This document shows, piece by piece, positions 1 to 14,850 of a DNA stretch of 32,000 nucleotides. Every line of letters begins with the position of its first letter. Position 1 is the first letter of the stretch. The notes beneath the pieces are model-generated. The model was not told the DNA's origin. It saw nothing but the letters and a program-made list of their open reading frames with translations, and searched no databases. The stretch spans positions 3,690,001 through 3,722,000 of the forward strand of contig NZ_RSDW01000001.1 of NCBI RefSeq assembly GCF_003945235.1. The letters are read 5' to 3'. Source of the DNA: Edaphobacter aggregans. Lineage in GTDB: Bacteria > Acidobacteriota > Terriglobia > Terriglobales > Acidobacteriaceae. Made by a program: the position numbers and the translations under genes.

Positions 1-1807
1 TGTCGATTGCTTTTGCGGGGTCTCCATGGCTGAGAGTTGCACGGGTGTAGACCATCAAAGCGGCACCGTTGTTTGGATTGAGCTGCATCGCCTTTTGGGC
101 CGAGGCTGTGCCCGCGTTTATGTCACCGGTCTGAAGCTGCAGCTCAGCGAGCATGGTGTACATATCTGCGTTCTGCGGGACTTTGGCGATCTGCTGCTGA
201 ATACGATCAATGGCCTTGGCTGGCTGCTTCTCAACCAGCATGGTGTAGACAAGCAGGCGCATGGCGCGAGCGGAGTTTGGGTCGTTGGTGAGTGCCTGCT
301 CGAGGAGAGCCTTGGCTTCGGGAATATTCTTCTGAGTCAAACGAAGCTCTGCCAGGGACAAGGGAGCGAGAGCGTTTTTGGGGTCGAGTTTCATGGCCTG
401 CTTGAAATCGGCCTCTGTCTTGTCGTACTGTTTCTGATTCCCTTCTGACATCCCTCTCCAAATGTAAGGATTCGCGAGCTGCGGGTTGATGGCGATGGCG
501 GCCTCCGCAGCCTGTGCTAGAAGCCCGAAGTCGCGGGCATCGAGGGCGGCCTGAGCGAGACCCTCCTGGGCCTGGAAGTTTCTCGGGTTGAGCTTTACAG
601 CGTCGCGAAAGCTCTGAAGGGCAACGGTCTGATCGCCCTTCATGCGAGCGGCGCGGCCCAGCCAAATCTTGACCTGAACGTTCTCGGGGTTGTTCTTCGC
701 AGACTTCTGCAGGAGGTTGAAGGCTTCAGTTGCCTTGTTATCGTTCAAGAGGAGCATGGCGTTGAGAACTGCAACGTCGGGGTCGCCCGCGTCGGTTTTT
801 TCAAGATCGTCAGCGATGGGCTTGGCCTTCGCCACGTCCTTTTTCATGAGCAGGATGCGGGCATAGGCCAGCTTGAGTTGCGTGCTCTTAGGATGTTTGG
901 CGACAAGATCAGCGTAGGCCGGCTCGGCACGATCCAGCTGCTGGGTGCTGATGTAGTAGCTCTCAAGAAGGTTAGCCCCGACCGGTGAGTCGCTGAGATC
1001 GTCGGCTGTTTGCCGGAAGGTCTCTTCGGCCTTGGCCTTGTCACCTTGGCGGAGATATATATGGCCGAGGTTGGCGCGTGCGCTGACATTTTTGGGGTCG
1101 GCTGTGACGGCGGCTTGCATCGCTTGCAAGGCTCCGGACAGGTCACCCTTTCTCTCGAGCAATGCGGCGAGCGCTATGTGAGAAGTGGCGTTCTTCGGAT
1201 CGAGTGAGACGGCCTTGTTGAGTTGCTCTTCGGCAGCAGGTTCTGTGGCGGGATCAGAGGCCTGGAGAAGGCCAAGCGCGGTGTGAAAGTTGGCCCGGTT
1301 CGGGTCGATGGAGAGGGCGTGTTGAATCTGGGAGAGGGCTTCGGCGCGATCTCCCTTGGTGGCGGCTATGCTCGAGAGAAGGGCATAGGCGTCGGCGTTG
1401 TTGCTGTCGATCGCCAGTACAGCCTTTGCCTGTTCGGCTGCACGGTCAGGCTGGCGGCCGGCCAAAAGCATGTTGCCGAGGTCGATCCGAGCCTGGGTAT
1501 TGCTGGACTGCAGGTCGACTGTGCGGAGAAGCTCGGCGTAGGCGGGCAGCATATTGCCCTGTTTGACATAAACTTTGGCCAACTCATAGTGGGCCGCAGC
1601 GAAGTTATGATCGACCCTGAGAGCGTTGGAGAACTGGATGGCCGCTTCCTTCAACTTATTGTCGGCAGCGTACCGTTTGCCGCTCTCAAGATACTTCTGT
1701 TTTTGCTTGTTGGGGTCGCGCGAACAACCAACGGTAAGCCCCAAGGCGATCGAGACAGCAAGTACCGCAGAAACCCGGAACCATCGTGGAGCTAATTGCA
1801 TTTTCAT
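1..1807 (-). CDS. prsT: TPR-repeat lipoprotein associated with the exosortase/PEP-CTERM system (PrsT-like); C-terminal part runs off the window
   Basis: Absent from the ORF track because the frame has no stop inside the window. My minus-strand translation from ATG at 1807 (SD-like GAGGAAAG just upstream) reads MKMQLAPRWFRVSAVLAVSIALGLTVGCSRDPNKQKQKYLESGKRYAADNKLKEAAIQFSNALRVDHNFAAAHYELAKVY... This is a signal peptide plus lipobox-like LTVGC, then continuous TPR-like repeats. The frame spot-checked open down to base 1 (...AQKAMQLNPNNGAA...). It lies immediately downstream of exosortase-epsI, as PrsT (TIGR02917-type) does in XrtA loci. Confidence 0.7.
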   Translation of the reverse strand, partial: MKMQLAPRWFRVSAVLAVSIALGLTVGCSRDPNKQKQKYLESGKRYAADNKLKEAAIQFSNALRVDHNFAAAHYELAKVYVKQGNMLPAYAELLRTVDLQSSNTQARIDLGNMLLAGRQPDRAAEQAKAVLAIDSNNADAYALLSSIAATKGDRAEALSQIQHALSIDPNRANFHTALGLLQASDPATEPAAEEQLNKAVSLDPKNATSHIALAALLERKGDLSGALQAMQAAVTADPKNVSARANLGHIYLRQGDKAKAEETFRQTADDLSDSPVGANLLESYYISTQQLDRAEPAYADLVAKHPKSTQLKLAYARILLMKKDVAKAKPIADDLEKTDAGDPDVAVLNAMLLLNDNKATEAFNLLQKSAKNNPENVQVKIWLGRAARMKGDQTVALQSFRDAVKLNPRNFQAQEGLAQAALDARDFGLLAQAAEAAIAINPQLANPYIWRGMSEGNQKQYDKTEADFKQAMKLDPKNALAPLSLAELRLTQKNIPEAKALLEQALTNDPNSARAMRLLVYTMLVEKQPAKAIDRIQQQIAKVPQNADMYTMLAELQLQTGDINAGTASAQKAMQLNPNNGAALMVYTRATLSHGDPAKAID

Positions 1808-1907
1808 CGAGCTTTCCTCTTCAGATAAGAACTTGTACTACGTAGATGTTTACTCCGTTACAGACCCATCTGGCACGATGCAGTATTTTCGCAACGGTTG
1901 CCGAGCT

Positions 1908-2597
1908 TCAGTCGGGAATAAACTGCGGCAGAAGTGGTGCTAACTCACCGGCGAAAAGTAGAGCGCGGTCCCGGGCGCTGGAGATTGGCTCGGACGGCAG
2001 GACGCTGGTGATGACGCGGACCAGGGCGCCGTCAGTACGGTTTGTGCGTATCGCATCCTTGACCATGTAGAGCTTGGCTTTGTATTCATTGGCAATGCTC
2101 CGGCCATGCGCCTGATACCAATAAATAACGAATTGTCTACTCTCGCCGTTGCTAATAACGTATTCGCCAACGTTATAGAGCTTTCCGTTGATATCGGGCA
2201 TGTTGACGTATCGGGAGGTCTCAAAAGTCCAGCCGGCTCCTGGGAGACAGTGCTGGGGCGAATGAATGGTCTGGCCGGTGCGCTGAGTAGGGAAATAGCC
2301 GATGAACAGGCTGACTGGAGCTGACGGATTGACCGCAGAGTGCGACTGGGCCTGAGCACCCGGCTGATGAAGTACGGAGGCGCCATAGATACGGTTGAGG
2401 AAATCGCCTTGGCCGAGTACGTCGAGAGTGTCCTGATCGAGAGGGATGTCTTGCAAGGTTGTCCAGGCTCCGATGGTGTTCGGCATCTGGCTCAAGGATT
2501 GACGAGGAGGAACATAGTCTTTGTCTCCACGGGTGTGGAGGAGAATGGCAGTTGCCGTGAGGAGGACTATGACAGTCCAAAATCGTGGAGATTTCAT
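1908..2597 (-). CDS. epsI: EpsI-family exosortase-associated protein
   Basis: Track ORF is 1908..2684. I prefer Met30 (MKSPRFWTVIVLLTATAILL, an N-terminal anchor). Its ATG (2597-2595) overlaps the exosortase TGA (2596-2594) as ATGA, indicating translational coupling. The body (FIGYFPTQRTGQTIHSPQHCLPGAGW...VIYWYQ) matches my memory of the EpsI/DUF3485 family. Its position directly after an exosortase is canonical. Confidence 0.8.
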   Translation of the reverse strand: MKSPRFWTVIVLLTATAILLHTRGDKDYVPPRQSLSQMPNTIGAWTTLQDIPLDQDTLDVLGQGDFLNRIYGASVLHQPGAQAQSHSAVNPSAPVSLFIGYFPTQRTGQTIHSPQHCLPGAGWTFETSRYVNMPDINGKLYNVGEYVISNGESRQFVIYWYQAHGRSIANEYKAKLYMVKDAIRTNRTDGALVRVITSVLPSEPISSARDRALLFAGELAPLLPQFIPD

Positions 2598-3544
2598 ATC
2601 GTCTTGCTCTTGACTGGTGAAATGAGGCGCATGACACGGTGGACCAGATACAGGCAGCACAGCGAAATGACAAACATCACCCACCCTGAAAATTCGTGGA
2701 AGAAGCCGAGAGCCTTAACCGGATCCCAGTATTGGACGAAGAGACCAGTGCCAACGATTCTTACGACGTTGGCAGCCACAGCGATGGGAATGCTGGCTAA
2801 GGCAAGAATCACGCGGCGTTTGGTGGTCTTTTCAAGAAAGTAACCATAGAAGACCGCCAGGGTGAACAGGCTCATCAGAGAACGGATACCGCTGCAGGCT
2901 TCGGCCACTTCCAGCTTCATGACCGGAAGTTCAATGACATTGCCATCTTGCAGGACTGGAACGCCGAATAGGGGCAGGATGATGCTGGCAACTCGGGAAG
3001 CGAGGAGTTGTAGCGGAAAGGTGATTTGGTTGAAGACGATGGCGGGAAAAGGGATTGCCAGCACTAGAACAAAGAGGGGAAAGAGAAGGCGATTAAGCAT
3101 GGGGCGACCGAAGAAAGTCCAGATGAGACCGCCCAGCAGAAAGACGAACGATATTCGTGAGGTGAAGAGCTCAACACCATAGACGCCGAGTATGAGAATG
3201 ACGAGTGCGAAGACGATCAGGCCAATTCCGGCCCAGGAAGGCCGAACAGGGGTGGCGCGGATCGCATCTCGATTGTCCCAGACAAGAAAGAGAGCAAAGA
3301 GAGGGACGAGGAAGCCGTGGGAATAGTCTGGGATGTTGTACCAGTCGGCTACCAGCTTGATAGCGATGCGAAAGTAAATCGCGACAAGGAGAGCGATAAT
3401 GGCAACCCAAGGAGCCCATCGTTCCGGGGATAGTCGCCCCGACCGTTTCTTGTCGGAAAAGGCTTCCTCGCTCGGGGTGAACGGTGGAGGAAGTGGTTCT
3501 GTTTGCATGCTGCCCACCGTTGTTGGTAAGACGTTATACTTCAC
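2594..3544 (-). CDS. xrtA: Exosortase (XrtA-type by locus synteny)
   Basis: Polytopic membrane ORF containing the exosortase active-site context EACSGIRSL. It is followed by epsI and prsT and faces the XrtA-associated EPS export genes. The true start is probably Met13 (ATG at 3508, MQTEPLPPPF). A sigma54-type promoter at 3557-3572 would place the transcript start at about 3546, too close to the 3544 ATG. Confidence 0.85.
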   Translation of the reverse strand: MKYNVLPTTVGSMQTEPLPPPFTPSEEAFSDKKRSGRLSPERWAPWVAIIALLVAIYFRIAIKLVADWYNIPDYSHGFLVPLFALFLVWDNRDAIRATPVRPSWAGIGLIVFALVILILGVYGVELFTSRISFVFLLGGLIWTFFGRPMLNRLLFPLFVLVLAIPFPAIVFNQITFPLQLLASRVASIILPLFGVPVLQDGNVIELPVMKLEVAEACSGIRSLMSLFTLAVFYGYFLEKTTKRRVILALASIPIAVAANVVRIVGTGLFVQYWDPVKALGFFHEFSGWVMFVISLCCLYLVHRVMRLISPVKSKTI

Positions 3545-3556
3545 ATATCACCTGCA

Positions 3557-3572
3557 AGCAATTCGAATGCCG
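3557..3572 (-). promoter_or_regulatory. Candidate sigma54 (-24/-12) promoter for xrtA-epsI-prsT
   Basis: The minus strand reads CGGCATTCGAATTGCT. GGCA and TTGCT have the exact GG-N10-GC spacing of the TGGCACG-N4-TTGCW consensus. It lies 13-50 nt upstream of the two possible exosortase start codons. Two sigma54 activators are encoded nearby. Confidence 0.5.
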
Positions 3573-3638
3573 TGTACCGGAACCGGTTTCTCTTTATTAC
3601 ACGCCTATGTCTATCAAAGTGGAAGATTACCGTCTACA

Positions 3639-3664
3639 AAAAAGGGAAAAACATTTCCCTTTTT
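3639..3664. promoter_or_regulatory. Perfect 11-bp inverted repeat AAAAAGGGAAA-N4-TTTCCCTTTTT between the two divergent sigma54-type promoters (candidate activator/bending site)
   Basis: Read directly: A39-A49 and T54-T64 are exact reverse complements with spacer AACA. The centre is about 80 bp from the minus-strand promoter and about 163 bp from the plus-strand promoter, a typical UAS distance range. Confidence 0.35.
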
Positions 3665-3813
3665 GACTGCCAATCTGCACACTGAGGGAGTACCCTAAAG
3701 TGGGGTAAAAGACTGATCTTCTGTCCAGAGATTCATCGGTCAGTTGTTGCAAAATGGCTTACATGTACCCGCGAGCGGAATTCTTTAGGAAAAATCGCCT
3801 CAGGGTAATGATT

Positions 3814-3829
3814 TGGCCCTTGTGGTGCA
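3814..3829 (+). promoter_or_regulatory. Candidate sigma54 (-24/-12) promoter for the EPS export operon
   Basis: TGGCCCTTGTGGTGCA contains TGGC...TGCA with GG-N10-GC spacing. It is about 175 nt upstream of the ATG at 4005. Confidence 0.45.
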
Positions 3830-4004
3830 GGAAGATTTGTCAGGTTTAGTGACGCCCTAGAGGTCTTCATGGCGTGCGGTTTAATGTGGATCCGTAACGC
3901 AAGCTGCATCAATAGTAAATGGAAATAAACGAGAACCGAACCTGATGAGTCAATAAAAGGGATGAGTCAATCCCTTGTCTTTACGAAAGGATGGGAGCTA
4001 CTCG

Positions 4005-4706
4005 ATGAAGTGTTTTGATGTGGTCTTGATTGGAGTGCTGTCTGTGGGACCGGCGGTCGCTGGCATGGCCCAGGCGGCACAAACGAAGCCGGTACCACCC
4101 GTTACGCCTCCAGTGTCTACGGCTGCACCTGCGACTGGGACGGACGGAGTGGTTGCGACACCAGCTCCGGCCAACCCTGACGGAGCCCCTTCCCCATCGA
4201 AATCATCCGACGCGGGGGTAGCAAATACGCCACATTACATTATTGGACCTGAGGACAACCTGCAAATCTCGGTCTGGAAGGAGCCGTCGCTCTCGGGCAC
4301 GATTCCGGTACGACCTGACGGTATGATCTCGCTGGCCCTGGTGGGCGATTTGCCCGCGTCAGGACGGACGCCGATGCAACTGGCGAACGACATCACAGTG
4401 CGACTAAAGAAGTATGTCCAGGACCCCAACGTCTCTGTTGTCGTACTAGCAGTGAACAGCCAGAAGATCTATATGGTTGGCGAGGTAGGACATGTTGGAC
4501 CGATCCCCCTGGCAGCAGGGATGACGCCATTGCAGGCAATTGCTACTGCAGGTGGGCTGGGTCCGTTTGCGAACTCGAAGAAGATTTATATTATGCGGAC
4601 AGTGGCGGGTAAGGAACAGAAGATCCCATTCAATTACAAGGTGGCGCTGAAGGGAGGAGATCAGGGAGTCACGCTGCAGTCTGGAGATACGATCGTCGTC
4701 CCATGA
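4005..4706 (+). CDS. Polysaccharide export protein (Wza-like; Poly_export + SLBB), XrtA/PEP-CTERM-system type
   Basis: The track ORF starts at TTG 3975. I prefer ATG 4005 (MKCFDVVLIGVLSVGPAVAGMAQA signal peptide, AGGA upstream). Poly_export-like segment: YIIGPEDNLQISVWKEP...VRPDGMISLALVGDLPASGRTPMQLANDI. SLBB-like segment: KIYMVGEV...MTPLQAIATAGG...GDTIVVP. A roughly 50-aa Pro/Ala/Thr-rich linker follows the signal peptide. Confidence 0.85.
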   Translation: MKCFDVVLIGVLSVGPAVAGMAQAAQTKPVPPVTPPVSTAAPATGTDGVVATPAPANPDGAPSPSKSSDAGVANTPHYIIGPEDNLQISVWKEPSLSGTIPVRPDGMISLALVGDLPASGRTPMQLANDITVRLKKYVQDPNVSVVVLAVNSQKIYMVGEVGHVGPIPLAAGMTPLQAIATAGGLGPFANSKKIYIMRTVAGKEQKIPFNYKVALKGGDQGVTLQSGDTIVVP

Positions 4707-6055
4707 GATGCCCTATGAAGATATGGCTGCCAATCTCGATGATGCTTCTGGCGCTGAGCGCTGTCTCGCCAGGACAGGCTGTTCCAACAGCCGTCGTCTC
4801 CAATACCAGCTCAGGATGGGGGATGCCGGCGCTCGATGGGACTGTCCACTACGCTTTGACCGCTTCGCAGCTGGTGCAACTGGGAGCCAACGGTTCGGGC
4901 GATACGACGCACTCGACTACATTGTCGGGAAACGTCTCCTATGCGAACACAAGCGAAGCACTACCGTTCTCAATGCTTTATTCGGGCGGCGTTCTTTTCG
5001 GAAACCTGTCGGGACAGGGAACGACGACCTTCCAGAATATTACCGTTTCGCAGGGACTTATTAGAGGAAAATGGGTGCTGGGTGTTTCTAATTCGTTCAG
5101 CTATCTACCGCAATCGCCAACTACGGGCTTGTCTGGAGTTCCGGGCGTGGGGGATCTTGGGACACAGCCGATTCAGGTACCGGGAGAGCCTCCAGTTGGA
5201 GGTGTGCTGACCTACTCAGGAAACCGCTACTCCAATACCTTGAGCGGCAACATTGAACGACGTCTTACCGGTAAGACCTCTTTGAGTGGAATGGGTTCCT
5301 GGTCAGTGCTACGGTTTCTGGATAACAACGGGCTGGATACGACGCAGATCTCGGGATCCGTGAGCGCTAATCATAGGATTGATGCCCGGAATACAATTAG
5401 CGCAAGTGCCATCTATTCCACATATACGACGAATGGGACTCTTCAGGAAGTCAATCTGCTGAATCCTCTTTACGCAACCGATTTCCAAACGCGCGGTTTG
5501 AATGTGGGGTATACGCGTTTGATGACTCGGGCACTCACCCTGAACGCCTCGGCAGGACCGCAGTGGGTGAACAGTTCCAGTGGGGTTCTGATTCCGTCGC
5601 GTGTGAATCTGGCTGCGGACGTGGGCCTTACCTATAGTCGGAAGATCATCGGTGCAAACGTGAATTATTCCCGGGGAGTCAACGGGGGGGGCGGAGTACA
5701 GCCGGGTGGGCTGTCTGACATCATTTCAGGTTCCGTGAGCCGCAGTCTTAGTCGTGTCTGGACGACCTCAGCTCAGGCGGTTTATTCACGTACTTCGGGG
5801 CTGCTCGCTGCAGCACCTGTTACGGCACAAACAACAACTCCAGCGAGCGTCAACGGAGTGACTGAAACGTTCTATTGCGGGGCGCAACTGTCGCGTGGAT
5901 TCGGCAGGTATTGGTCAGGCTGGGTGAGTTACGGGGCCCAGAACCAATCCATCAATAATTCAATTGTGTCGCAGAATGCTTTTAGCGGGTTCTCGCAGAC
6001 GTTTGCAGTAGGAATTACATTCGCGCCGAGGGCAACACGTCTCGGTCAGTTTTAA
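4703..6055 (+). CDS. Putative outer-membrane beta-barrel protein of the EPS locus (EpsL-like position)
   Basis: Its ATG overlaps the upstream TGA (ATGA at 4703-4706). It has a signal peptide (MKIWLPISMMLLALSAVSPGQA), Ser/Thr/Gly/Asn-rich alternating beta-strand-like composition, and a C-terminal aromatic residue (..RLGQF) typical of OMPs. The family assignment rests on context only. Confidence 0.55.
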   Translation: MRCPMKIWLPISMMLLALSAVSPGQAVPTAVVSNTSSGWGMPALDGTVHYALTASQLVQLGANGSGDTTHSTTLSGNVSYANTSEALPFSMLYSGGVLFGNLSGQGTTTFQNITVSQGLIRGKWVLGVSNSFSYLPQSPTTGLSGVPGVGDLGTQPIQVPGEPPVGGVLTYSGNRYSNTLSGNIERRLTGKTSLSGMGSWSVLRFLDNNGLDTTQISGSVSANHRIDARNTISASAIYSTYTTNGTLQEVNLLNPLYATDFQTRGLNVGYTRLMTRALTLNASAGPQWVNSSSGVLIPSRVNLAADVGLTYSRKIIGANVNYSRGVNGGGGVQPGGLSDIISGSVSRSLSRVWTTSAQAVYSRTSGLLAAAPVTAQTTTPASVNGVTETFYCGAQLSRGFGRYWSGWVSYGAQNQSINNSIVSQNAFSGFSQTFAVGITFAPRATRLGQF

Positions 6056-6064
6056 GGAGTCATC

Positions 6065-7597
6065 ATGCTTGGTCATCGTGCACTGACGTTTGAAGATTAT
6101 GGTGCCATCCTAAAAAGACGGTGGTGGATGGTTGCTATTCCTGCGGCGATCCTACCGGTGATTGCATTTGCGAGCAGCTATTTAGTGCAACCGCAGTACT
6201 TGTCGCAGACGTTGGTGTTGGTGGAGCAGCAGAAGGTTCCCGAAGATTACGTAAGGCCAGTAGTGTCGGAAGATCTGACTGGCCGGCTGGCTTCGATGAG
6301 GGAGCAGATTCTGAGCCGTGCGCGGTTGATGCCAATCATTGAACGGTTCAACCTCTACGGCAGCGGTAAGATGTCGATGGACGACCGGATTGATCTAACG
6401 CGGAAGAACATCGATATCAAGCCAATTCACTCAGAGATGGCACGTACTGGCGGGCTGCCGGGCTTCTTCATTTCGTTTACGGCCTCCGATGCACGTACAG
6501 CGCAGCAGGTGGCTGGCGAGATTACGTCGTTGTTCGTGAATGAGAACCTGAGATCCCGCGCGAGTTCTGTGGAAGGCACACAAGAGTTTCTGCAAGGCCA
6601 ACTCGCAGACGCCAAACGGAACCTGGACGACCAGGATGCGAAGATGGCGGCGTTCGAGCAGAAGTATATGGGCAAGCTACCGGGCGAAGAGGCTCCCAAC
6701 ATGAACATGATTTCGAGCCTAAATACGCAGTTAGATGCTACGACTCAGGCTCTGGCACGAATGGAGCAGGATAGAAGTTATGAAGAAGCAATGCTGACTC
6801 AACAGCAGTCCGTGGCCCAGACGATAGATCGTGGCGGTCCGGCACCCCAGGCACAGCAGGCGGAACTGCAGTCGCTTTTGAATGAAGAGGCGGACCTGAC
6901 CAAGCGGTACACCGACGATTACCCGGATGTGGTTGCTGTTCGGCGGAAGATCAAAGATTTGCGCGCTGAGATGGCAAGCGCACCACCACCAGCGCCGGTC
7001 CCACCTGTCTCCGCGCCAAATCGTGGCGATTCACCGGCGGTGTTGCAGCTTCGCGCTCAGATTCGCTCTCTCGACCAGGGGATCGCGCAGAAAAGGCATG
7101 AACAGGGGCAGATCTCTAGCCAACTTAAAATTTATCAGGATCGCATCTCATCGAGCCCCATGGTGCAGGAAGAATATAAGAACCTCACGCGGGATTACAC
7201 AACGGCGCAGGCGTTCTACGACAGTCTCCTGAAGAATGTGAACCAATCGAAAATGGCGACTGACCTGGAAAAACGTCAACAAGGGGAGCAGTTCAAAGTG
7301 ATGGATGAGCCTAATCTTCCAGACGAGCCCTCCTCGCCAAAGCGCAGTGTGTTTCTCGCAGGCGGTTTGGCGGCCGGGCTAGGGCTTGGACTATTACTGG
7401 TTGCGTGGATTGAGTATCGCGACACAGCACTACGCAGCGAGAGGGACATATGGGCGTTTACGAAGCTGCCGACGCTAGCTGTCATATCGCTGACCGGAGA
7501 GATGCAGCCGGTGGCAACCAAGCAAAAATGGACGTTTGGCCGACGCAAACCGAAGATCGCAGCGGCGGGTAAACCGCTGATGAATGCGGGCGGGTGA
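6065..7597 (+). CDS. Polysaccharide chain-length determinant (Wzz/GumC-like, PEP-CTERM locus subfamily)
   Basis: AAGGAG SD lies 5 nt upstream. There is an N-terminal TM (WWMVAIPAAILPVIAFASSYLV), a long coiled-coil periplasmic region, and a C-terminal TM (VFLAGGLAAGLGLGLLLVAWI). This is the Wzz/PCP topology. Confidence 0.8.
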   Translation: MLGHRALTFEDYGAILKRRWWMVAIPAAILPVIAFASSYLVQPQYLSQTLVLVEQQKVPEDYVRPVVSEDLTGRLASMREQILSRARLMPIIERFNLYGSGKMSMDDRIDLTRKNIDIKPIHSEMARTGGLPGFFISFTASDARTAQQVAGEITSLFVNENLRSRASSVEGTQEFLQGQLADAKRNLDDQDAKMAAFEQKYMGKLPGEEAPNMNMISSLNTQLDATTQALARMEQDRSYEEAMLTQQQSVAQTIDRGGPAPQAQQAELQSLLNEEADLTKRYTDDYPDVVAVRRKIKDLRAEMASAPPPAPVPPVSAPNRGDSPAVLQLRAQIRSLDQGIAQKRHEQGQISSQLKIYQDRISSSPMVQEEYKNLTRDYTTAQAFYDSLLKNVNQSKMATDLEKRQQGEQFKVMDEPNLPDEPSSPKRSVFLAGGLAAGLGLGLLLVAWIEYRDTALRSERDIWAFTKLPTLAVISLTGEMQPVATKQKWTFGRRKPKIAAAGKPLMNAGG

Positions 7598-7599
7598 CG

Positions 7600-8535
7600 A
7601 TGTATAAGAGCTTCTTCAAACTGCAGAGCAGTCCTTTTGGGACCAGTCCTGATCCGCGGTTTCTGTACATGATGCCGCATACTCGGGAGGCGCTGGCCTG
7701 CCTTGAGTACGGCATCTCGGCACGGAAGGGATTTACGGTGCTCACGGGTGAAGTTGGCACTGGTAAGACGACACTGTTGAGAAGGGCACTTGCATCGTTT
7801 CATAGCCGGAGGGTATCGACAGCGTTCGTCTTCAATCCACGGCTTGATGTTCTGGATTTTCTTGAATTTGTGCTCACCGACTTCGGTATTGCGCCGGCGA
7901 CGCGTACCAAATCTGGCATGCTGCTGCAGCTTAATCGATGGCTGATTGAGCGGTTTCGCATGGAAGAGACCTGTGTCGTGGTGGTCGATGAGGCCCAGAA
8001 TCTTTCCTGGGAGTTGCTGGAAGAGATTCGGTTGTTGACGAACCTAGAAACATCGTCTGAGAAGCTATTGCAGATCGTGCTCTCGGGGCAGCCCGAGCTT
8101 GAAGAGAAGCTGCGGCATCCGAGCGTTCGACAATTGAGGCAGAGAGTTTCGCTGTGGTGCCGTACGCAGTCACTAACCGAGAGTCAGACGCATGCCTATG
8201 TTGCCGAACGACTTCGAATCGCCGGCGCTACCTGGCCATTGTTTTCGCTGGATGCTCTCGATCTGGTGCATCGCTACGGCCGAGGAATTCCGCGCATCAT
8301 CAATTTGTTGTGTGAGCACTCGCTGATTGTTGCGTATGTCGAACAGGTGCAGCAGGTGACAGGGGCGATGGTAGAGGGAGTGGCGGTCGAATTGGAATTA
8401 GAGACGCAACCGTTCCTCATATCGTCTGCCGCCATGAGTGGCGGAAGCGGGCAGCCATCACGGGCCTTTAGCTCCGATGGTCCCAACCTGATAACGAGTT
8501 TCAACGGAGAAATACCGGGAAGGCAAGATCGATGA
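7600..8535 (+). CDS. ExeA-like AAA ATPase (XrtA/PEP-CTERM system-associated ATPase type)
   Basis: The track start is GTG 7594 (overlapping the TGA at 7595-7597). ATG 7600 gives MYKSFFKLQSSPFG, the typical ExeA-family N-terminus. Walker A is GEVGTGKTT and Walker B is VVVVDEAQ. Confidence 0.8.
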   Translation: MYKSFFKLQSSPFGTSPDPRFLYMMPHTREALACLEYGISARKGFTVLTGEVGTGKTTLLRRALASFHSRRVSTAFVFNPRLDVLDFLEFVLTDFGIAPATRTKSGMLLQLNRWLIERFRMEETCVVVVDEAQNLSWELLEEIRLLTNLETSSEKLLQIVLSGQPELEEKLRHPSVRQLRQRVSLWCRTQSLTESQTHAYVAERLRIAGATWPLFSLDALDLVHRYGRGIPRIINLLCEHSLIVAYVEQVQQVTGAMVEGVAVELELETQPFLISSAAMSGGSGQPSRAFSSDGPNLITSFNGEIPGRQDR

Positions 8536-9500
8536 GCCGCATATACGAAGCACTGCAAAAGGCAGAATCGGAGCGGAAGTTGGAGCGGCACGAACGCGAA
8601 TCATTCGCGCCGGAACAGGTGGCCGATGATAGTCCTATTCCTGCGCGAACTGCGTCCGCTGTTGCCGAAGAGTACGATTCTGCTTCGATGCAAACGATGA
8701 CGAGCCGTCTCGCCGAGACGTTCGAACCATCGCCGTTGACGCATGACCGTGCGTCGGGACTCAATGTAGATAAGATTGCCCGGCAGCCGTGGTCTCCAGT
8801 CTTGTCTCAATTACCGGCTCTGCTGGATCGTGGTCCTTCCGTAGAACAGTTTCGGAGCCTGCGTTCACGGATTTACGAGCTCCGCGACATTAGTCCGCTG
8901 AAGTCGATTCTAGTGAGCAGCGGTCTGCCGCAGGAGGGAAAAAGCTTCATCTCGGCGAATCTTGCTATTAGCCTGGCGCGTCACAAGAACAGCAAAGTGC
9001 TTCTGATCGATGGTGATATGCGTCGTTATACTGCACATGAGATATTGGGCTGTGAGTCGCAACCGGGATTAGCGGAGTATCTGGCTGGAAAGGCAAGCAT
9101 CGAAGAAGTGATGCAGAGGGCAGATGCGGCGGATGCAAATGGATCAGCTAAGTTTCATCTGACGAACCTTACCTTTATCCCGGGCGGCAATGGCGGCGAT
9201 AAGGCGGCCGATCTTTCCGGAAATCCACGTTTCGGCGAATTGATCAAATTAGCGGAACCACATTTTGACTGGATTATTGTAGATTCTTCACCGGTGCTCC
9301 CTGTGTCGGATGCAGTGAATCTGGCGCGGTCCTGCGACGGTGTGCTGCTGGTTGCTCGTGGAGGGGTGACCAAGTTTCCTGTGGCACAGCGCGCGGCAAG
9401 CGAGTTGAAGGCCTCGAACATTCTTGGCTTTGTGCTTAATGCCGTAGAGGACAAACCCCAGGTTGGCGATTATTACGGGTACAACGCCAACAAGGAGTAA
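8532..9500 (+). CDS. BY-kinase-type tyrosine autokinase / chain-length regulator ATPase (EpsG-like)
   Basis: ATGA overlap with the upstream stop. Walker A is GLPQEGKS, Walker A' is VLLIDGDMRR, Walker B is DWIIVDSSP. The C-terminal Tyr cluster is DYYGYNANKE. Confidence 0.8.
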   Translation: MSRIYEALQKAESERKLERHERESFAPEQVADDSPIPARTASAVAEEYDSASMQTMTSRLAETFEPSPLTHDRASGLNVDKIARQPWSPVLSQLPALLDRGPSVEQFRSLRSRIYELRDISPLKSILVSSGLPQEGKSFISANLAISLARHKNSKVLLIDGDMRRYTAHEILGCESQPGLAEYLAGKASIEEVMQRADAADANGSAKFHLTNLTFIPGGNGGDKAADLSGNPRFGELIKLAEPHFDWIIVDSSPVLPVSDAVNLARSCDGVLLVARGGVTKFPVAQRAASELKASNILGFVLNAVEDKPQVGDYYGYNANKE

Positions 9501-9518
9501 CAGGGAGCAATTGACGCG

Positions 9519-10895
9519 ATGATCCGGCTGTTCAATGTGTATTACCCAACACGTACCATTGTCCTGCTGCTGTGCGAGACTCTGATAGTAAGTGGTTCAT
9601 TCCTGTTGGCGACGGCGATGATGCTCGGGCCAGATACCTATCTGGTCCTCAACTACGAATACGGCGCGCTGAAGATCGCGGGTCTTACAGTGCTTACTCT
9701 GCTTTGCTCCTATTACTTTGATTTATATGAGCCTCAGCGTATCTCCGCACGCTGGGAGATCTACTTTCGCCTACTGCTTGTTCTCGGATTGCTGTCCTTT
9801 TTACTTTCGGCGGTGATCTATTTTTTTCCGGGTGCTGATATTGCCCACTACGTTCTGTTGCTGGGGCTGATATTTCTGACATTGTCGTTGGTCGCTTGGC
9901 GTAGTGCGTATGAGTGGATCATCGGGAGAAAGATGTTTCGTGAGCGCGTGTATGTGCTCGGCGCCGGTGAACGTGCACGGACAGTTGTTGAATTGCTTCA
10001 AACTCGCAAGGATGCAGGTATGGAGGTCGTTGGTTCCGATTCACGTTCGCTCGACAAAGCTGAACGGAAAGAGGCCTTTACAACGGCGCTTGAAGCTTTT
10101 CACGGTCCCGATCCAGGGATCGATCGCGTAATTATTGCCCTCGAAGATCGCCGCGGAGAACTTCCATTACGCGAGTTGCTGAAACTGCGATTCAACGGTG
10201 TGGTGATTGAAGAGGCTGGGACGTTGCTGGAGAGGCTTACGGGCAAATTGTATCTGGATGGACTGCGCCCGAGCAGCTTCATCTACGGAGAAGGATTTCG
10301 CGTGAGGCCGTCGCAGCAGATCGCAAGGCGCATTGTTTCTACGTTGACAGCAGCCACAGGTCTGCTTTTATTTCTACCTTTTTTCCCATTTGTGGTGCTG
10401 ATGGTTCGTTTGTCTTCGCCTGGACCAATCTTTTTCCGTCAGACCCGTGTTGGACTTGGCGGACGCAACTTTACCGTTTATAAGTTTCGTTCGATGGGGA
10501 CGGACGCTGAGGCTGCCGGGGCCAAATGGGCGACAAAGAACGATCCCCGTGTTACGCACGTGGGCATGTTCATGCGGAAGACGCGATTGGATGAGGTTCC
10601 GCAATTGTGGAATGTGCTACGTGGTGATATGGGATTTGTAGGGCCTCGACCAGAAAGACCTGAGTTTGTGCCGTGGCTGTCGGAACAGATCCCGTATTTC
10701 GATTTGCGCCACATGATTCGTCCGGGCCTGACGGGATGGGCGCAGGTACGCTATGGCTATGGCTCGACACTGGCAGAGACTCGCGAGAAGCTTGAGTACG
10801 ATTTGTATTACATCAAGCACATGTCTCTAGGGCTGGACTTATTGATCATGTTCGAGACAGTGAAGACGATTCTACGGCGACGGGGAGCGCAATAA
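9519..10895 (+). CDS. Polyprenyl-phosphate sugar phosphotransferase (Bac_transf family; PEP-CTERM-system EpsB/TIGR03013-like priming enzyme)
   Basis: N-terminal TM bundle, a central Rossmann-like segment ([17 protein letters not shown]), and a C-terminal bacterial sugar transferase domain ([26 protein letters not shown]...[21 protein letters not shown]...GLTGWAQV). Confidence 0.9.
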
Positions 10896-10978: not shown

Positions 10979-12130
10979 TCAATAGATCCTGGGGCGTGAT
11001 GAAAGTGTGGGTTTTAGGGAACGTTCCCCACTTTTTTTTACCAAACGAGGCATACGCAGGGGGCGGGGTGGGACCTCGGGCATGCCAACCTCGCTCAACT
11101 TATAGAGGAGGGAGCGGTAGCTGATTTGAAGCCACTTAGCGGTCTTCTGGCGGTTCCAGCTGTTGGCTTGCAGGACTTTGAGGATGATCTGACGCTCAAG
11201 GTCATGCGTAGCCTGCTTGGTGATGTTTTTGAGTGAGATGGGTTCGCTGAGGTCGATGTCGGTGGTGATGCCGCCACGGGCCGGCTCGGGCATCATCTCA
11301 GCGACCAAGGCTTCTTCACTTCCAATCAGGACGTAGCTACGGATGAGGTTCTCGAGCTGGCGGATGTTTCCCGGCCAGTGATAGTTTTGCATCAGACGGA
11401 TGGCACTCTTTGAGAGAAGTTCCGGTGTATGGTGGAAAACTTTTGCATAGTGCTCGATGAAATAGTCGATGAGGATGGGCAGGTCTGCGATGCGCTGGCG
11501 CAGAGGGGGAAGGTTGATGGTCACTGCGTTGATGCGGAAGAGGAAGTCAAGGCGAAAAGTGCCGTCTTCGACCTGGCTGCGGAGGTCGGTGTTAGAGGCC
11601 GAGACGAGGCGAGTGGTGATGGTACGGGCCTCGTGGCCACCGACGCGGACGAAGGTGCCATCCTGCAGAACCTGGAGGAGCTTGGATTGGACGCCGAGAT
11701 CGAGGCTGCCTACTTCGTCGAGGAAGAGGGTGCCCATGTGTGCCTGCTCGACGCGGCCGAGTTTGGTGCTCATCGCGCCGGTAAACGCTCCCTTTTCATA
11801 GCCGAAAAGCTCGGTTTCGAGCAGGGTGTGCGGGATGGCCGGACAACTCACTTTGACAAGAGAGCCGCGTGCACGCATCGAGAGGGAATGCAGCAAGCGG
11901 ACAGCTAGCTCTTTGCCGGTGCCGCTTTCTCCTTGAATAAGAACGGGAACGTCTGTCTCGGCCACTCGTTCGAGCTTGTTGCGGACGGCCTGCATAGATG
12001 CTGTTTTGCCGAAGATGATATCCAACGGTGGGAGATCGAGTGCGGCAGCGGATTCGGCGTTGTGAACCAAGGTCTTTTTCCTATTAACTGGATGGGTAGG
12101 GCATGACAGCAACTCTGCAATTCCCTTCAC
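10979..12130 (-). CDS. Sigma54-dependent transcriptional activator lacking any N-terminal sensory/receiver domain (AAA+ plus Fis-type HTH only)
   Basis: Walker A GESGTGKE, sigma54-contact loop GAFTGA (EKGAFTGAM), Walker B TLFLDEV, C-terminal HTH (NRQKTAKWLQISYRSLLYKL). Only about 45 residues precede the AAA+ core even with the longest (GTG) start. The exact start is uncertain because there is no clear SD. Confidence 0.85.
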   Translation of the reverse strand: MKGIAELLSCPTHPVNRKKTLVHNAESAAALDLPPLDIIFGKTASMQAVRNKLERVAETDVPVLIQGESGTGKELAVRLLHSLSMRARGSLVKVSCPAIPHTLLETELFGYEKGAFTGAMSTKLGRVEQAHMGTLFLDEVGSLDLGVQSKLLQVLQDGTFVRVGGHEARTITTRLVSASNTDLRSQVEDGTFRLDFLFRINAVTINLPPLRQRIADLPILIDYFIEHYAKVFHHTPELLSKSAIRLMQNYHWPGNIRQLENLIRSYVLIGSEEALVAEMMPEPARGGITTDIDLSEPISLKNITKQATHDLERQIILKVLQANSWNRQKTAKWLQISYRSLLYKLSEVGMPEVPPRPLRMPRLVKKSGERSLKPTLSSRPRIY

Positions 12131-12460
12131 AGTGCACGTGAGTCGCCAATCATTTGAATGTCGCTGTGATTTAAAGACTCAAACATCATGAAAAAGACAT
12201 GGTGGTTTTGATCTCCGACATCAGATCGGATCGTAAGCAGCTATCTATCGGTAGAAAACGAGGTCATAGCAAGAAAGCTTACTAAAGTAACCCTAGCCAA
12301 AAATAACCTTTTTTTTGACTCTTTTGAAGCGGTTAACATGTAATCTAAGCCTACTTGGAGAGAAATAAGGGAAAACCTTTATCTCTTTTGTCAGCAAAAT
12401 TATTAACATTTTTCTGTCGCAGGTTTCTCAAACGGTCTAAAATTCGCTCAGCAAAACGCC

Positions 12461-12477
12461 GTGGGGAGTCTCCCCAC
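12461..12477. promoter_or_regulatory. Perfect 17-bp palindrome GTGGGGAG-T-CTCCCCAC in the divergent EBP-EBP intergenic region
   Basis: Read directly: 8-bp arms are exact reverse complements around a central T. It lies about 120 bp upstream of the 12596 start codon. Confidence 0.3.
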
Positions 12478-12595
12478 CTCTGCGGCCGGGAAAGAATCAA
12501 TAAGGTAGTGCGGATCCAGTAAAAAGAGAGACATGGGTCCAAGAGTCTTGCAAGGTTTGGACGTTAGATTCCAAACCGGCCTATAGGGGTGTTGT

Positions 12596-14023
12596 ATGTC
12601 CGCTTCGTTGTCGTATCCGATCTCTGCTTTTAAGTCCAGTTCTAAGGCCCGCGCCCAGATACTAATTCTGGAGCCAGACATTGCAGTTCTCGACTATCTT
12701 CGGTTGACCCTTGGTGACCAGTATGCGCTTAGCCTCTTCTCGGAAGAGCAATCGCTGCTGGACCGCCTTGATCAAAAGGAGGCCGACTTGCTGTTACTGG
12801 CATTGCACGCGAACCGGGATCCGATTCCGCTACTGACGCATATCCGATGCACGAAGCCGAATCTGCCGGTAATTGTGCTGTCATGCTCGGCGGAACTGCG
12901 GGATCTGGAGATGGTGATCCGGCTCGGCGTGCGGGCGATCGTGATGAAGCCGTTTACCGGCAGCGACGTGGAACAGGCGATCGAAGAGCATTTGGCAACG
13001 GCGGAGAAGAAGATTTCGCCGGCCGACTCCCCGCGGGAGATTCCTCTGAATGAGACGCATTCGTTCGTGCGGTCAAGCAAGCGGATGCGGGATCTTGAAG
13101 CGCAGGCTGCTCTGGTTGCCCGGGCGGATATTCCGCTTCTGATCCTAGGAGAGAGCGGGACGGGCAAGGAGATTCTTGCGCTATATACACACATGATGTC
13201 TGCGCGGAGCCAGCGCATCTTCCTTAAGGTGAATTGCGCAGCAGTGCCGGCAGATCTGCTGGAAAGCGAACTGTTCGGCTATGAACAGGGCGCGTTCACC
13301 GGTGCGGTGAAGACGAAGCCGGGTAAGTTCGAAATATGCTCGGGTGGAACGATCTTCCTGGACGAGATTGGCGAAATGCCTGCGATTTTGCAGGCAAAGC
13401 TGCTGCAAGTGCTGCAGGACGGGACTTTTTCGCGGCTGGGCAGCCGATCGCCGATGAAGGTGGATGTGCGGGTGATCGCAGCGACGAACATCAATATGAA
13501 AGAAGCAATGGCGAACAAGACGTTCCGCGAGGATCTGTACTACCGGCTAAACGGATTCACGTTGAGCATTCCGCCGTTGCGGGAGAGACGTGAGGAGATT
13601 CCGGTGTTCGCTGAGTATTTTATGCGGAAGAGCGCCAAGAAATACGGTCGCGAGCCGTTGCACTTCTCGCAGACTTTGGTGAATACGCTGACGGAACACT
13701 CGTGGCCAGGAAACTTGCGTGAGTTGGAGAATGTGGTGAATCGCTATCTTGTGCTGGGCGATGAGAAGGCGATCGTTGACGAGCTTTCTCCGTCGAACGC
13801 TTATCAGGGCGCTTCGGCTGCGGCGGCAGAGGCGCCGACCGGTGCTGGCCTGAAGGCTATGGTGAAGAGTCTAAAGGGTGGTGCTGAGGCCAGCGCGATC
13901 GCTCAGGTGCTGGAAGGTGTTGGTTGGAACAGGAAGGCAGCGGCAAATGATCTTCAGATCAGTTACAAGGCGCTGCTGTACAAGATCAAGCAATATGACC
14001 TTTCTCCGCAGGATCGCGCATAA
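12596..14023 (+). CDS. NtrC-family sigma54-dependent regulator with a degenerate (Asp-less) receiver domain; PrsR-like by position
   Basis: Receiver-like N-terminus (ILILEPD...ADLLLLALHAN...VIVLSCS...MKPF), AAA+ core (GESGTGKE, EQGAFTGAV, TIFLDEI), and Fis HTH (NRKAAANDLQISYKALLYKI). The residue aligned to the phospho-acceptor Asp is Ala. Confidence 0.85.
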   Translation: MSASLSYPISAFKSSSKARAQILILEPDIAVLDYLRLTLGDQYALSLFSEEQSLLDRLDQKEADLLLLALHANRDPIPLLTHIRCTKPNLPVIVLSCSAELRDLEMVIRLGVRAIVMKPFTGSDVEQAIEEHLATAEKKISPADSPREIPLNETHSFVRSSKRMRDLEAQAALVARADIPLLILGESGTGKEILALYTHMMSARSQRIFLKVNCAAVPADLLESELFGYEQGAFTGAVKTKPGKFEICSGGTIFLDEIGEMPAILQAKLLQVLQDGTFSRLGSRSPMKVDVRVIAATNINMKEAMANKTFREDLYYRLNGFTLSIPPLRERREEIPVFAEYFMRKSAKKYGREPLHFSQTLVNTLTEHSWPGNLRELENVVNRYLVLGDEKAIVDELSPSNAYQGASAAAAEAPTGAGLKAMVKSLKGGAEASAIAQVLEGVGWNRKAAANDLQISYKALLYKIKQYDLSPQDRA

Positions 14024-14518
14024 GTGAAAAAGATGGCCGAGACAGAGACCACGGGAACGTACCGGGTTGTCGTACGCTATGAAGACCGTGCGGTTCGTGG
14101 GTTCGTGGAGGAGAGCGAACTGGGGTCGATCGAGCAGCTTTTGCGGAACGATCCGCAGTATCCTCTTGATTCCATTCGTTTAAGGCTCCTCGATTCTGAA
14201 GAGGTCGAAGAGGTTCCTACTAAGGACGCTAAGGCAGTTTTTTTTGTTAAGACGTTCGATGGTGATTTGCGGCATCGGGCGCTGCATTTCCATGAAAATG
14301 CGCCAATTGTGCCGGGACTCTGGGTGCGGGTGTATTTTTACGATGGCGAGATGATCGAGGGGATCATCAGCAATACGCGGGACTTTGTGTTGGAGGATGG
14401 GTTTTTTATGAGGCCCACGGATCCTAATGGAAACAATAGACTTGTCTATATTTTGAAAGGCGGGTTGAAGGATTTTCACGTGCTGGGGATGAGGAATCCT
14501 TCGAAGAATCCGGCTTAG
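14024..14518 (+). CDS. Hypothetical 164-aa soluble protein, co-transcribed with the pseudo-receiver EBP
   Basis: The GTG start is immediately adjacent to the upstream TAA (14021-14023). It is followed by a clear rho-independent terminator. Two similar beta-rich halves are visible (YRVVVRYEDRAVRGFVEE...AVFFVKTFDGD and LWVRVYFYDGEMIEGIISN...LVYILKGGLKDF). I do not recognise a family with confidence. Confidence 0.6.
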   Translation: MKKMAETETTGTYRVVVRYEDRAVRGFVEESELGSIEQLLRNDPQYPLDSIRLRLLDSEEVEEVPTKDAKAVFFVKTFDGDLRHRALHFHENAPIVPGLWVRVYFYDGEMIEGIISNTRDFVLEDGFFMRPTDPNGNNRLVYILKGGLKDFHVLGMRNPSKNPA

Positions 14519-14522
14519 GTTT

Positions 14523-14549
14523 GCGCGGTGGGTGCCGCGTTTTTTTATT
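14523..14549 (+). terminator. Rho-independent terminator of the EBP-164aa operon
   Basis: CGCGG-TGGGTG-CCGCG stem-loop (14524-14539) followed by TTTTTTTATT. Confidence 0.6.
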
Positions 14550-14850
14550 ACTGATTCGGTTTGTAGGCCCACGTGCGCGATGACGCTGGATGGGGCGTTG
14601 GCGTGTGGTTTCTGGTGGGCAGCTAACGGAAAAAAGTGTGGCAAGTGTGGTTTGCTGACGGCCGTTTTTTGGCCTTCGCGGAAGTTGCCCTTCGCAGGGT
14701 GACCTTGTCATTTGCATATCAGAACGGAGGACTTGGCCAATCTCATACGAGGTTGTTGCGCGGAACTCGTCGGTGCCGAGTTCCGCCTCGTCGGTGCTGA
14801 TCCCTGAGACCGCTGTGTTTAAGACGAACACCTCTTCACTGCTCGAAATT

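Follow-up and report, generated by a model that had tools for sequence, protein, structure and literature searches.

Two divergently transcribed genes for sigma-54 enhancer-binding proteins (EBPs), together with a third gene encoding a 164-aa protein of the DUF6982 family, make up a trio which is inherited as a unit in Acidobacteriaceae and which was found in a 32-kb stretch of the Edaphobacter aggregans genome (the window in what follows, that is, the whole stretch of DNA analysed). EBP-1 is an activator devoid of a sensory domain, EBP-2 carries a receiver-like domain in which the phospho-acceptor Asp is replaced by Ala, and the DUF6982 gene follows EBP-2 immediately. A first-pass annotation of the window had singled out this arrangement; the observation is confirmed at the sequence level, and its recurrence in 76 of 80 related genomes puts it far beyond chance. 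As a working model, to which we assign a probability of roughly 0.45, the trio would be a partner-controlled pseudo-receiver activator feeding an EBP-to-EBP cascade.

The co-inherited trio and its two activators

The relatives were obtained by scanning one genome per GTDB species, which gave 429 loci, and the best 80, all from Acidobacteriaceae (Edaphobacter, Tunturiibacter, Granulicella and metagenome-assembled genomes), were examined; more distant loci came from look-ups and from a metagenome scan in which distant DUF6982 members served as seeds (numbers such as L010, L085 and L103 are the locus labels of this analysis). The trio is a co-inherited unit. The order EBP-1 (–), EBP-2 (+), DUF6982 (+) is kept in all but four of the 80 loci, and three of these exceptions are contig ends. 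The fourth, L010, is the only amply flanked locus without an intact EBP-1 open reading frame (ORF) between the sugar transferase gene and EBP-2 (L010:6903-8478), and the gene may have suffered a frameshift or become a pseudogene there. EBP-1, EBP-2 and the DUF6982 protein have median identities of 87%, 85% and 77%, respectively, as against 48-68% for several of the exopolysaccharide (EPS) proteins encoded nearby. In distant lineages the DUF6982 protein is 33-45% identical and its gene is still found 3' of an EBP-2 ortholog, usually with a divergent EBP-1 ortholog. In L103 and L109 the order is swapped, with DUF6982 behind the short EBP, and the long EBP has a canonical receiver.

The receiver of EBP-2 is recognized by the Response_reg model PF00072 (34.3 bits, with a cutoff of 30.2) over profile positions 1-110 of 111. 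HMMER alignments place Ala69 (codon 12800-12802) opposite D58 of RssB and the acceptor Asp of Brucella NtrX, which upholds the replacement of Asp by Ala read in the first-pass annotation, as well as its account of the remaining catalytic positions, with Glu26-Pro27 in place of the acidic pair and with Ser96 and Lys118 retained. Residues E26, P27, D28, A69, S96 and K118 are invariant in 77 of 77 full orthologs, over which the receiver is 82% conserved per column; judged from this alignment, the Asp-less state is fixed and the domain is under selection. Because Ala is fixed at the acceptor position, the receiver is predicted to be unable to take a phosphoryl group at the canonical site. Among the more distant relatives the acceptor is Ala in L085, Gln in L090, His in L091, Ser in L106 and L110, Asp with an incomplete acidic pair in L092 and L114, and Asp in a fully canonical DD/D/S/K set in L103 and L109. 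Since some of these relatives keep the canonical set, the loss of Asp in EBP-2 is derived, and the Asp-less receiver appears to have arisen inside a lineage already tied to DUF6982.

That the module is kinase-less is borne out both by the acceptor, with no Asp in any of the 77 orthologs, and by the surroundings. No HisKA or HATPase_c domain was found in the large ORFs of the window and a phmmer kinase probe of the 32 kb was blank, in line with the claim that no histidine kinase is encoded there; only four of the 80 loci have a kinase-like ORF inside 10 kb, never at a conserved position, by a single-sequence probe which very divergent kinases could escape. The expectation of a PrsK kinase for a PrsR-type regulator, on the other hand, had to be given up, since EBP-1 and EBP-2 score 273.8 and 306.5 with TIGR02915 (PrsR), both under the cutoff of 502.6, and PrsK/PrsR/PrsT was described by Haft et al. 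as proteobacterial, with other regulators expected elsewhere (PMC1569441). The absence of PrsK is therefore expected and is no anomaly.

In EBP-1 the Pfam matches are a Sigma54_activat domain (residues 39-205 in the numbering of the longest ORF), an AAA lid and an HTH_8 helix-turn-helix (HTH), with no N-terminal regulatory domain and with about 18 residues ahead of the AAA+ core. Translation of EBP-1 most likely begins with the TTG at 12070, given that ortholog conservation sets in at about residue 21 of the long ORF and that two gene models have 363 aa, namely the annotated E. aggregans protein, 100% identical to EBP-1, and a metagenome gene call; an AGGA is found a few bases 5' of this TTG. 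The sensor-less character attributed to the protein stands, while the length of 383 aa, with up to about 45 residues before the AAA+ core, is to be corrected accordingly. EBP-1 is not a PspF ortholog (252.9 with TIGR02974, cutoff 443.55). Both EBPs match PF00158 (Sigma54_activat; 203 and 218 bits for the two) and the Fis-type HTH of PF02954, and in both Walker A and GAFTGA are intact, GAFTGA being present in all readable Acidobacteriaceae orthologs; with this domain content they are predicted to be sigma-54 activators, capable of ATP-dependent activation at –24/–12 promoters. The two proteins are 41% identical and their recognition helices, LQISYRSLLYKL and LQISYKALLYKI, are nearly the same, which suggests that they read related sites.

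The C-terminal tail of EBP-1 after the HTH (10979-11080, minus strand; GMPEVPPRPLRMP...SRxRIY) contains a PxxPxR-like motif and is kept within Acidobacteriaceae. The idea that this proline-rich tail is an SH3-type ligand of the DUF6982 protein was dropped, as the tail is conserved only in Acidobacteriaceae and is not conserved in L085. In the L085 ortholog of EBP-1 (L085:2558-3685, minus strand) GALEGA replaces GAFTGA, and EBP-1 there may therefore no longer contact sigma-54 alone; a pattern search also failed to match GAFTGA in the EBP-1-like genes of L106, L109 and L110.

DUF6982, promoters and polysaccharide context

The 164-aa gene abuts EBP-2 as originally described, its GTG coming directly after the EBP-2 TAA, and an ATG lies three codons further. 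In 93 of 93 pairs, from the Acidobacteriaceae and the distant sets, the DUF6982 core begins 20-56 nt past the EBP-2 stop, and in 32 of them the DUF6982 start codon must overlap the end of EBP-2. A strong terminator-like hairpin follows the gene (Table 1) and the genes further 3' (PcfJ-like and thioredoxin-like) are conserved in none of the 80 loci, on which grounds the module is taken to end after DUF6982. With genes that abut or overlap and with the hairpin at their 3' side, EBP-2 and DUF6982 make up a fixed two-gene unit.

The protein had been called uncharacterised, and a literature search indeed found no publication mentioning DUF6982; it is no orphan, since it matches this Pfam family at 134 bits. 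Among 1.84 billion cluster representatives, which were searched exhaustively, 449 clusters belong to the family, and their members are nearly all stand-alone proteins of 150-200 aa. In an alignment of 42 diverse members K70, V75, D107, E109, E112, N117 and N137 are invariant, and the near-invariant positions include W100, G113, P131, D133, N138 and K145; the polar residues K70, D107, E109, E112, N117, D133, N137, N138 and K145 make up a conserved cluster. The AlphaFold2 model built from this alignment is a confident one and consists of two small beta-barrel halves (predicted local distance difference test, pLDDT, 86.4; predicted template modelling score, pTM, 0.81). A Foldseek search with this model against the PDB gave no match at E<1e-3, and as the likenesses seen (tandem-Tudor for the whole model, Sm/Hfq for the C-terminal half) are weak, no function can be transferred from them. 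Matches of a PDB sequence search were at chance level only, and a profile search with the diverse alignment returned close relatives only. A PilZ-like motif for binding of cyclic di-GMP (c-di-GMP) was also considered and dropped, the RxxxR of the window protein not being conserved in the family.

A second DUF6982 subfamily is 28-37% identical, and in about 64 of the 84 loci found with a distant query there is no EBP within 8 kb. The EBP-free paralogs are divergent from a gene for a PolyA_pol-head nucleotidyltransferase, a protein of the CCA-adding or poly(A) polymerase-like kind, and lie upstream of lpxD; dnaE, acyltransferase and Mur ligase genes are also near them (L104-L168; e.g. L158:7890-8369, L119, L126 and L137). 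Given the Sm-like C-terminal barrel of the model, a role related to RNA or to envelope precursors is conceivable for these EBP-free proteins. The polar cluster is common to both subfamilies, which suggests an intrinsic binding function, and DUF6982 is thus a general small module, with one of its subfamilies devoted to the two EBPs.

The region between EBP-1 and EBP-2 is AT-rich, as had been stated (42% GC, compared with 56% in the window), and is about 525 bp long instead of 465 bp. The 77 orthologous regions were aligned and share several conserved blocks. In the sigma-54 promoter candidate of EBP-1 (TGGCGACTCACGTGCA) GG and GC are found at exact spacing in 77 of 77 regions, with a variable spacer, and a comparable site occurs at or just 5' of the EBP-1-like ORF in eight of eight distant loci (TGGCGCAGTACGTGCA in L114 and a near-perfect TGGCACTGCTGTTGCA in L109). 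This conserved promoter candidate points to a transcriptional cascade or a feedback loop. No conserved GG-N10-GC site precedes EBP-2 across the 77 aligned regions. The most conserved block of the region may be an activator-binding site and/or the EBP-2 promoter, for which its conservation is suggestive only; when the EBP and EPS intergenic regions are compared, the best local match joins it to the most conserved EPS block at 3638-3664, with a score of 27 against 20.6 ± 2.1 for shuffled sequences (6 of 300 shuffles reach it), and an enhancer shared by the two regions is only a lead. The inverted repeat ahead of EBP-2 could be a hairpin of the 5' untranslated region (UTR) or a dimer-binding operator.

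The exosortase/Poly_export intergenic region was aligned via four loci anchored on EBP-1 orthologs, which gave five regions in all. Of the two sigma-54 promoters proposed at 3557-3829 by the first-pass annotation, the exosortase site recurs in all five regions and the Poly_export site in only three. A 12-mer, GTGAAGTATAAC (3533-3544, minus strand), is invariant in five of five genomes, at or just after the predicted exosortase sigma-54 start; in the window it coincides with the GTG of the longest exosortase ORF, the mRNA of which would be nearly leaderless, and in L169 its counterpart is within the 5' UTR. A TGTGAAG akin to it comes after the promoter of EBP-1 (12122-12128, minus strand).

The trio belongs to acidobacterial surface-polysaccharide loci, and polysaccharide genes flank it in every case. 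In the window it stands beside the exosortase EPS locus, as reported, an XrtA-type cluster in the left third, with genes for a PrsT-like TPR lipoprotein, EpsI, exosortase A, an export protein, a chain-length determinant, an ATPase, a tyrosine kinase and a TIGR03013 priming sugar transferase. The exosortase A call is marginal (208.2 with TIGR03109, cutoff 208), the priming transferase scores 428 (cutoff 393) and EpsI is also above the cutoff of its model; the ATPase, chain-length, export and PrsT matches are below theirs. The gene of the PrsT-like lipoprotein (2-1807, minus strand; signal ...LTVGC) comes straight after epsI and is cut by the window edge, the truncated protein scoring 264 bits with TIGR02917 (cutoff 312); it is present though PrsK and PrsR are not. 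Of the 76 genomes, 48 have the XrtA cluster beside the trio, and most of the other 28 have GT4 glycosyltransferases, a Wzy_C protein and an MBOAT acyltransferase at that position, with a sugar epimerase gene after DUF6982 in 11 of the 28. L085 and L171, from unrelated lineages, have polysaccharide flanks as well, and in both a GGDEF gene (L085:8226-9380 and L171:5007-6248) lies with a sugar epimerase gene beside DUF6982, which hints at a link to c-di-GMP.

Two neighbours of the module in the window may be mentioned here. A PcfJ-like gene (PF14284; 14851-16056, minus strand) just 3' of the module is absent from that place in all 80 related genomes, and the position is therefore considered a variable, possibly mobile, insertion point. 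A 2275-aa protein (18085-24912, plus strand) has 18 Big_3_5 Ig-like repeats and FG-GAP repeats; its homologs are found beside the trio in the closest relatives (L005, L006 and L172), with more distant Ig-repeat proteins on the EBP-1 side in L065, L072 and L097, and it could be located at the cell surface and share its regulation with the EPS locus.

Table 1. Coordinates in the window of the trio, its candidate control elements and the adjoining polysaccharide cluster.
Feature	Positions	Strand	Remarks
EBP-1, sensor-less sigma-54 activator	10979..12070	-	363 aa from TTG at 12070; longest ORF to 12130
EBP-2, NtrC-family sigma-54 activator	12596..14023	+	pseudo-receiver residues 22-129, AAA+ with GAFTGA, HTH_8
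DUF6982 (PF22478) protein, 164 aa	14024..14518	+	Pfam 134.1 bits, cutoff 24.5; profile positions 3-134 of 134
Intrinsic-terminator-like hairpin and seven T	14523..14550	+	5 nt after DUF6982 stop
Sigma-54 –24/–12 promoter candidate of EBP-1, TGGCGACTCACGTGCA	12133..12148	-	about 63 nt 5' of TTG start
Most conserved intergenic block	12363..12415		columns mostly 0.8-1.0 over 77 loci
Inverted repeat GGTTTGG-N10-CCAAACC	12554..12577	+	18 nt before EBP-2 start; arms kept across 77 loci, loop variable
Sigma-54 promoter candidate of exosortase (xrtA-epsI-prsT-like) operon, CGGCATTCGAATTGCT	3557..3572	-	GG and TTGC in 5/5
Weaker sigma-54 promoter candidate, TGGCCCTTGTGGTGCA	3814..3829	+	146 nt 5' of Poly_export gene; conserved 3/5
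XrtA/PEP-CTERM-type EPS cluster	2..10895		likely local target of the trio

Proposed mechanism and alternatives

In the proposed mechanism EBP-2 would be the input point, its pseudo-receiver keeping the AAA+ ring off or on, and EBP-2 would take its state from a bound DUF6982 protein instead of from a kinase, for which the FlbD/FliX pair described below is the precedent; the conserved polar pocket of the DUF6982 protein may sense a metabolite or an ion. Active EBP-2 would fire the sigma-54 promoter of EBP-1, which, having no sensor, is proposed to act by its amount, as PspF and HrpS do, and EBP-1 would then drive the exosortase/EPS promoters and possibly its own, alone or with EBP-2. Exopolysaccharide and PEP-CTERM export would in this way be under a self-amplifying on-switch that needs no kinase. 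Protein-protein control of the EBPs, already put forward when the window was first annotated, is plausible. In a more specific version, the DUF6982 protein would be a new small sensor/adaptor replacing the histidine kinase input, which binds a metabolite or ion, docks on EBP-2 and gates the sigma-54 cascade; this is a possibility that we regard as doubtful. Docking would take place on the AAA+ ring of EBP-2 or on its Asp-less receiver, and the ligand would be bound by the pocket of invariant Asp, Glu, Asn and Lys residues.

Several points weigh against the partner-controlled cascade, in which the contact between the DUF6982 protein and an EBP is the weakest link. A large sister group is EBP-free and DUF6982 is therefore not an obligate EBP partner, and the swapped order in L103 and L109, together with the canonical receiver of their long EBP, means that the partner could be the AAA+ core or EBP-1. 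The assignment of the EBPs to the promoters is an inference, and the promoters themselves were called by consensus and conservation only. As a plain scan of the window for the sigma-54 consensus (up to two mismatches) is not enriched, with 25 sites found and 31 expected, the calls rest on conservation and position. The shared upstream element, which 6 of 300 shuffles equal in score, is weakly supported, and the counts of short motifs are inconsistent.

The EBP-free paralogs also bear on a first alternative, in which the DUF6982 protein would be no regulator of an EBP at all, and would instead be a small ligand- or nucleic-acid-binding protein of envelope or polysaccharide physiology, merely co-expressed with EBP-2; the latter would either be active all the time or respond to its own amount or to another signal. 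Besides the roughly 64 of 84 distant-query loci which carry paralogs without an EBP within 8 kb, this would account for the polar cluster common to both subfamilies and for the likeness of the C-terminal half to an Sm/Hfq barrel, and many pseudo-receivers are intrinsically active dimers (PMC12632262). Set against it are the tight coupling to an EBP in all 93 pairs, down to 33% identity of the DUF6982 protein, and the survival of this coupling through the order swap in L103 and L109, for which it is difficult to account unless the two are functionally linked; moreover, the conserved surface is acidic and Asn-rich, which would be atypical for RNA binding. On balance, a mere passenger role is somewhat unlikely.

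A second alternative is a mixed AAA+ hexamer of EBP-1 and EBP-2 of the HrpR/HrpS kind, in which the pseudo-receiver of EBP-2 would be the sole regulatory handle of the ring and the DUF6982 protein would act on this mixed ring. The genes of the two EBPs are always co-inherited side by side, GAFTGA and the Walker motifs are kept in both proteins, the near-identical recognition helices would allow occupation of the same enhancer, and the GALEGA form of EBP-1 in one distant lineage would be workable only in a mixed ring or as a modulator. HrpR and HrpS, however, are close paralogs encoded by one operon, whereas the two EBPs of the trio share just 41% identity and are divergently transcribed from promoters of different types. 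The sigma-54 promoter of EBP-1 implies, in addition, that expression is sequential and not stoichiometric, and points to a cascade or feedback, which it would fit at least as well as a hetero-oligomer. Such a ring is considered unlikely.

Binding of c-di-GMP is a property of several EBPs, namely FleQ, VpsR, Nla24 and BerB, and second-messenger control, in which one or both EBPs or the DUF6982 protein would bind c-di-GMP in place of a kinase input, would be compatible with the partner-controlled cascade. The GGDEF genes that adjoin the trio in the two unrelated lineages of L085 and L171 speak for it, but neither the window nor the majority of loci has such a neighbour. By eye, the sequence of EBP-2 has Leu-Tyr where FleQ has Arg-Asn after Walker A, and Pfam detects no PilZ, FleQ-N or other known c-di-GMP-binding domain. 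Although c-di-GMP receptors are frequent among the EBPs that control EPS and have an atypical receiver (in part PMC12632262), this form of control is held to be decidedly improbable for the trio.

Finally, phosphorylation of EBP-2 by an orphan kinase encoded elsewhere, on a non-canonical acceptor residue, is highly improbable, for although Asp28, Ser96 and Lys118 are retained and orphan response regulators are common (PMC12632262), all 77 orthologs have Ala at the acceptor position, where Gln, His or Ser stands in other lineages, the acidic pair contains Pro, and no conserved kinase lies within 10 kb.

Significance and comparison with known systems

The ingredients of the trio are known, that is, Asp-less receivers (EBPs included), sensor-less EBPs, EBPs controlled by a partner, EBP cascades and sigma-54 control of PEP-CTERM loci. 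What is new is their combination and the partner, a DUF6982 protein tied to a pseudo-receiver EBP, plus a sensor-less EBP behind a sigma-54-type promoter; a literature search found no publication on this trio or on acidobacterial sigma-54/EPS regulation. The trio gives DUF6982 its first functional context and is proposed as the first set of candidate regulators for exopolysaccharide loci of the XrtA/PEP-CTERM type outside Proteobacteria. Acidobacteriaceae are dominant soil bacteria, and their capsule and EPS output shapes soil aggregation and carbon turnover; if the sensor/adaptor version of the model is true, a DUF6982-gated cascade turns on exosortase-dependent exopolysaccharide in a highly abundant soil bacterial family, and the series from Asp to Ser, His, Gln and Ala records the evolutionary replacement of phosphorylation by partner binding.

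Asp-less receivers are common. Their switching on and off is acknowledged to be an open question and "remains a mystery" (PMC12632262), and the trio makes this question testable. EBP-2 resembles other pseudo-receiver proteins in matching the receiver model with catalytic residues missing and with Ser/Thr and Lys kept. Most known pseudo-receivers are without an obvious dedicated partner, whereas EBP-2 has a deeply conserved, co-transcribed candidate, and its relatives, unlike pseudo-receivers in general, supply a series from the canonical to the Asp-less receiver.

With PrsK/PrsR/PrsT the trio shares a sigma-54 activator tied to XrtA/PEP-CTERM EPS loci, –24/–12 promoters and a PrsT-like TPR lipoprotein. 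It differs in having neither PrsK nor the acceptor Asp, in that both EBPs fall under the PrsR cutoff, and in that its sigma-54 sites precede exosortase and regulator genes and not the genes of PEP-CTERM proteins.

PspF (with PspA) and HrpR/HrpS (with HrpV and HrpG) are regulated in trans through small proteins that bind them, or through the level of their expression, and, like EBP-1, consist of AAA+ and HTH only. At the trio, in contrast, no homolog of PspA or HrpV is found and the EBP paired with EBP-1 has a pseudo-receiver; HrpR and HrpS are encoded in tandem, while the EBP genes of the trio are divergent, with 41% identity between the products and a receiver-like domain in one of them.

In the FleQ to FleSR and FlrA to FlrBC cascades a master EBP switches on a second activator from a sigma-54 promoter, and the trio is proposed to be similar in that an Asp-less-receiver EBP under partner control stands upstream of a second EBP. 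FleQ itself combines an Asp-less receiver with AAA+ and HTH domains, takes its control from a partner protein instead of a kinase, and regulates exopolysaccharide genes (PMC12632262). The differences are in the partner, which is a two-barrel DUF6982 protein in the trio and a MinD-type ATPase in the case of FleN, in the second activator, which in the trio has neither receiver nor kinase, and in the N-terminus of EBP-2, where Pfam finds no FleQ-type domain and matches PF00072.

FlbD of Caulobacter crescentus has a receiver without the key phosphorylation residues and no cognate kinase, and is active unphosphorylated; FliX, a small (about 140 aa) conserved trans-acting protein, binds FlbD directly and controls it (PMC3096577). 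The likeness to the trio is in the sigma-54 activator with a divergent receiver and without a kinase, to which control by a small protein would be added here by inference only. EBP-2 remains far under the cutoff of the FlbD model NF050807 (289.7, cutoff 750, with the match in the AAA+/HTH part only) and the DUF6982 protein is not FliX, DUF6982 being its sole Pfam match. FlbD acts on flagella and the trio on exopolysaccharide, as proposed, and the trio adds a second, sensor-less EBP.

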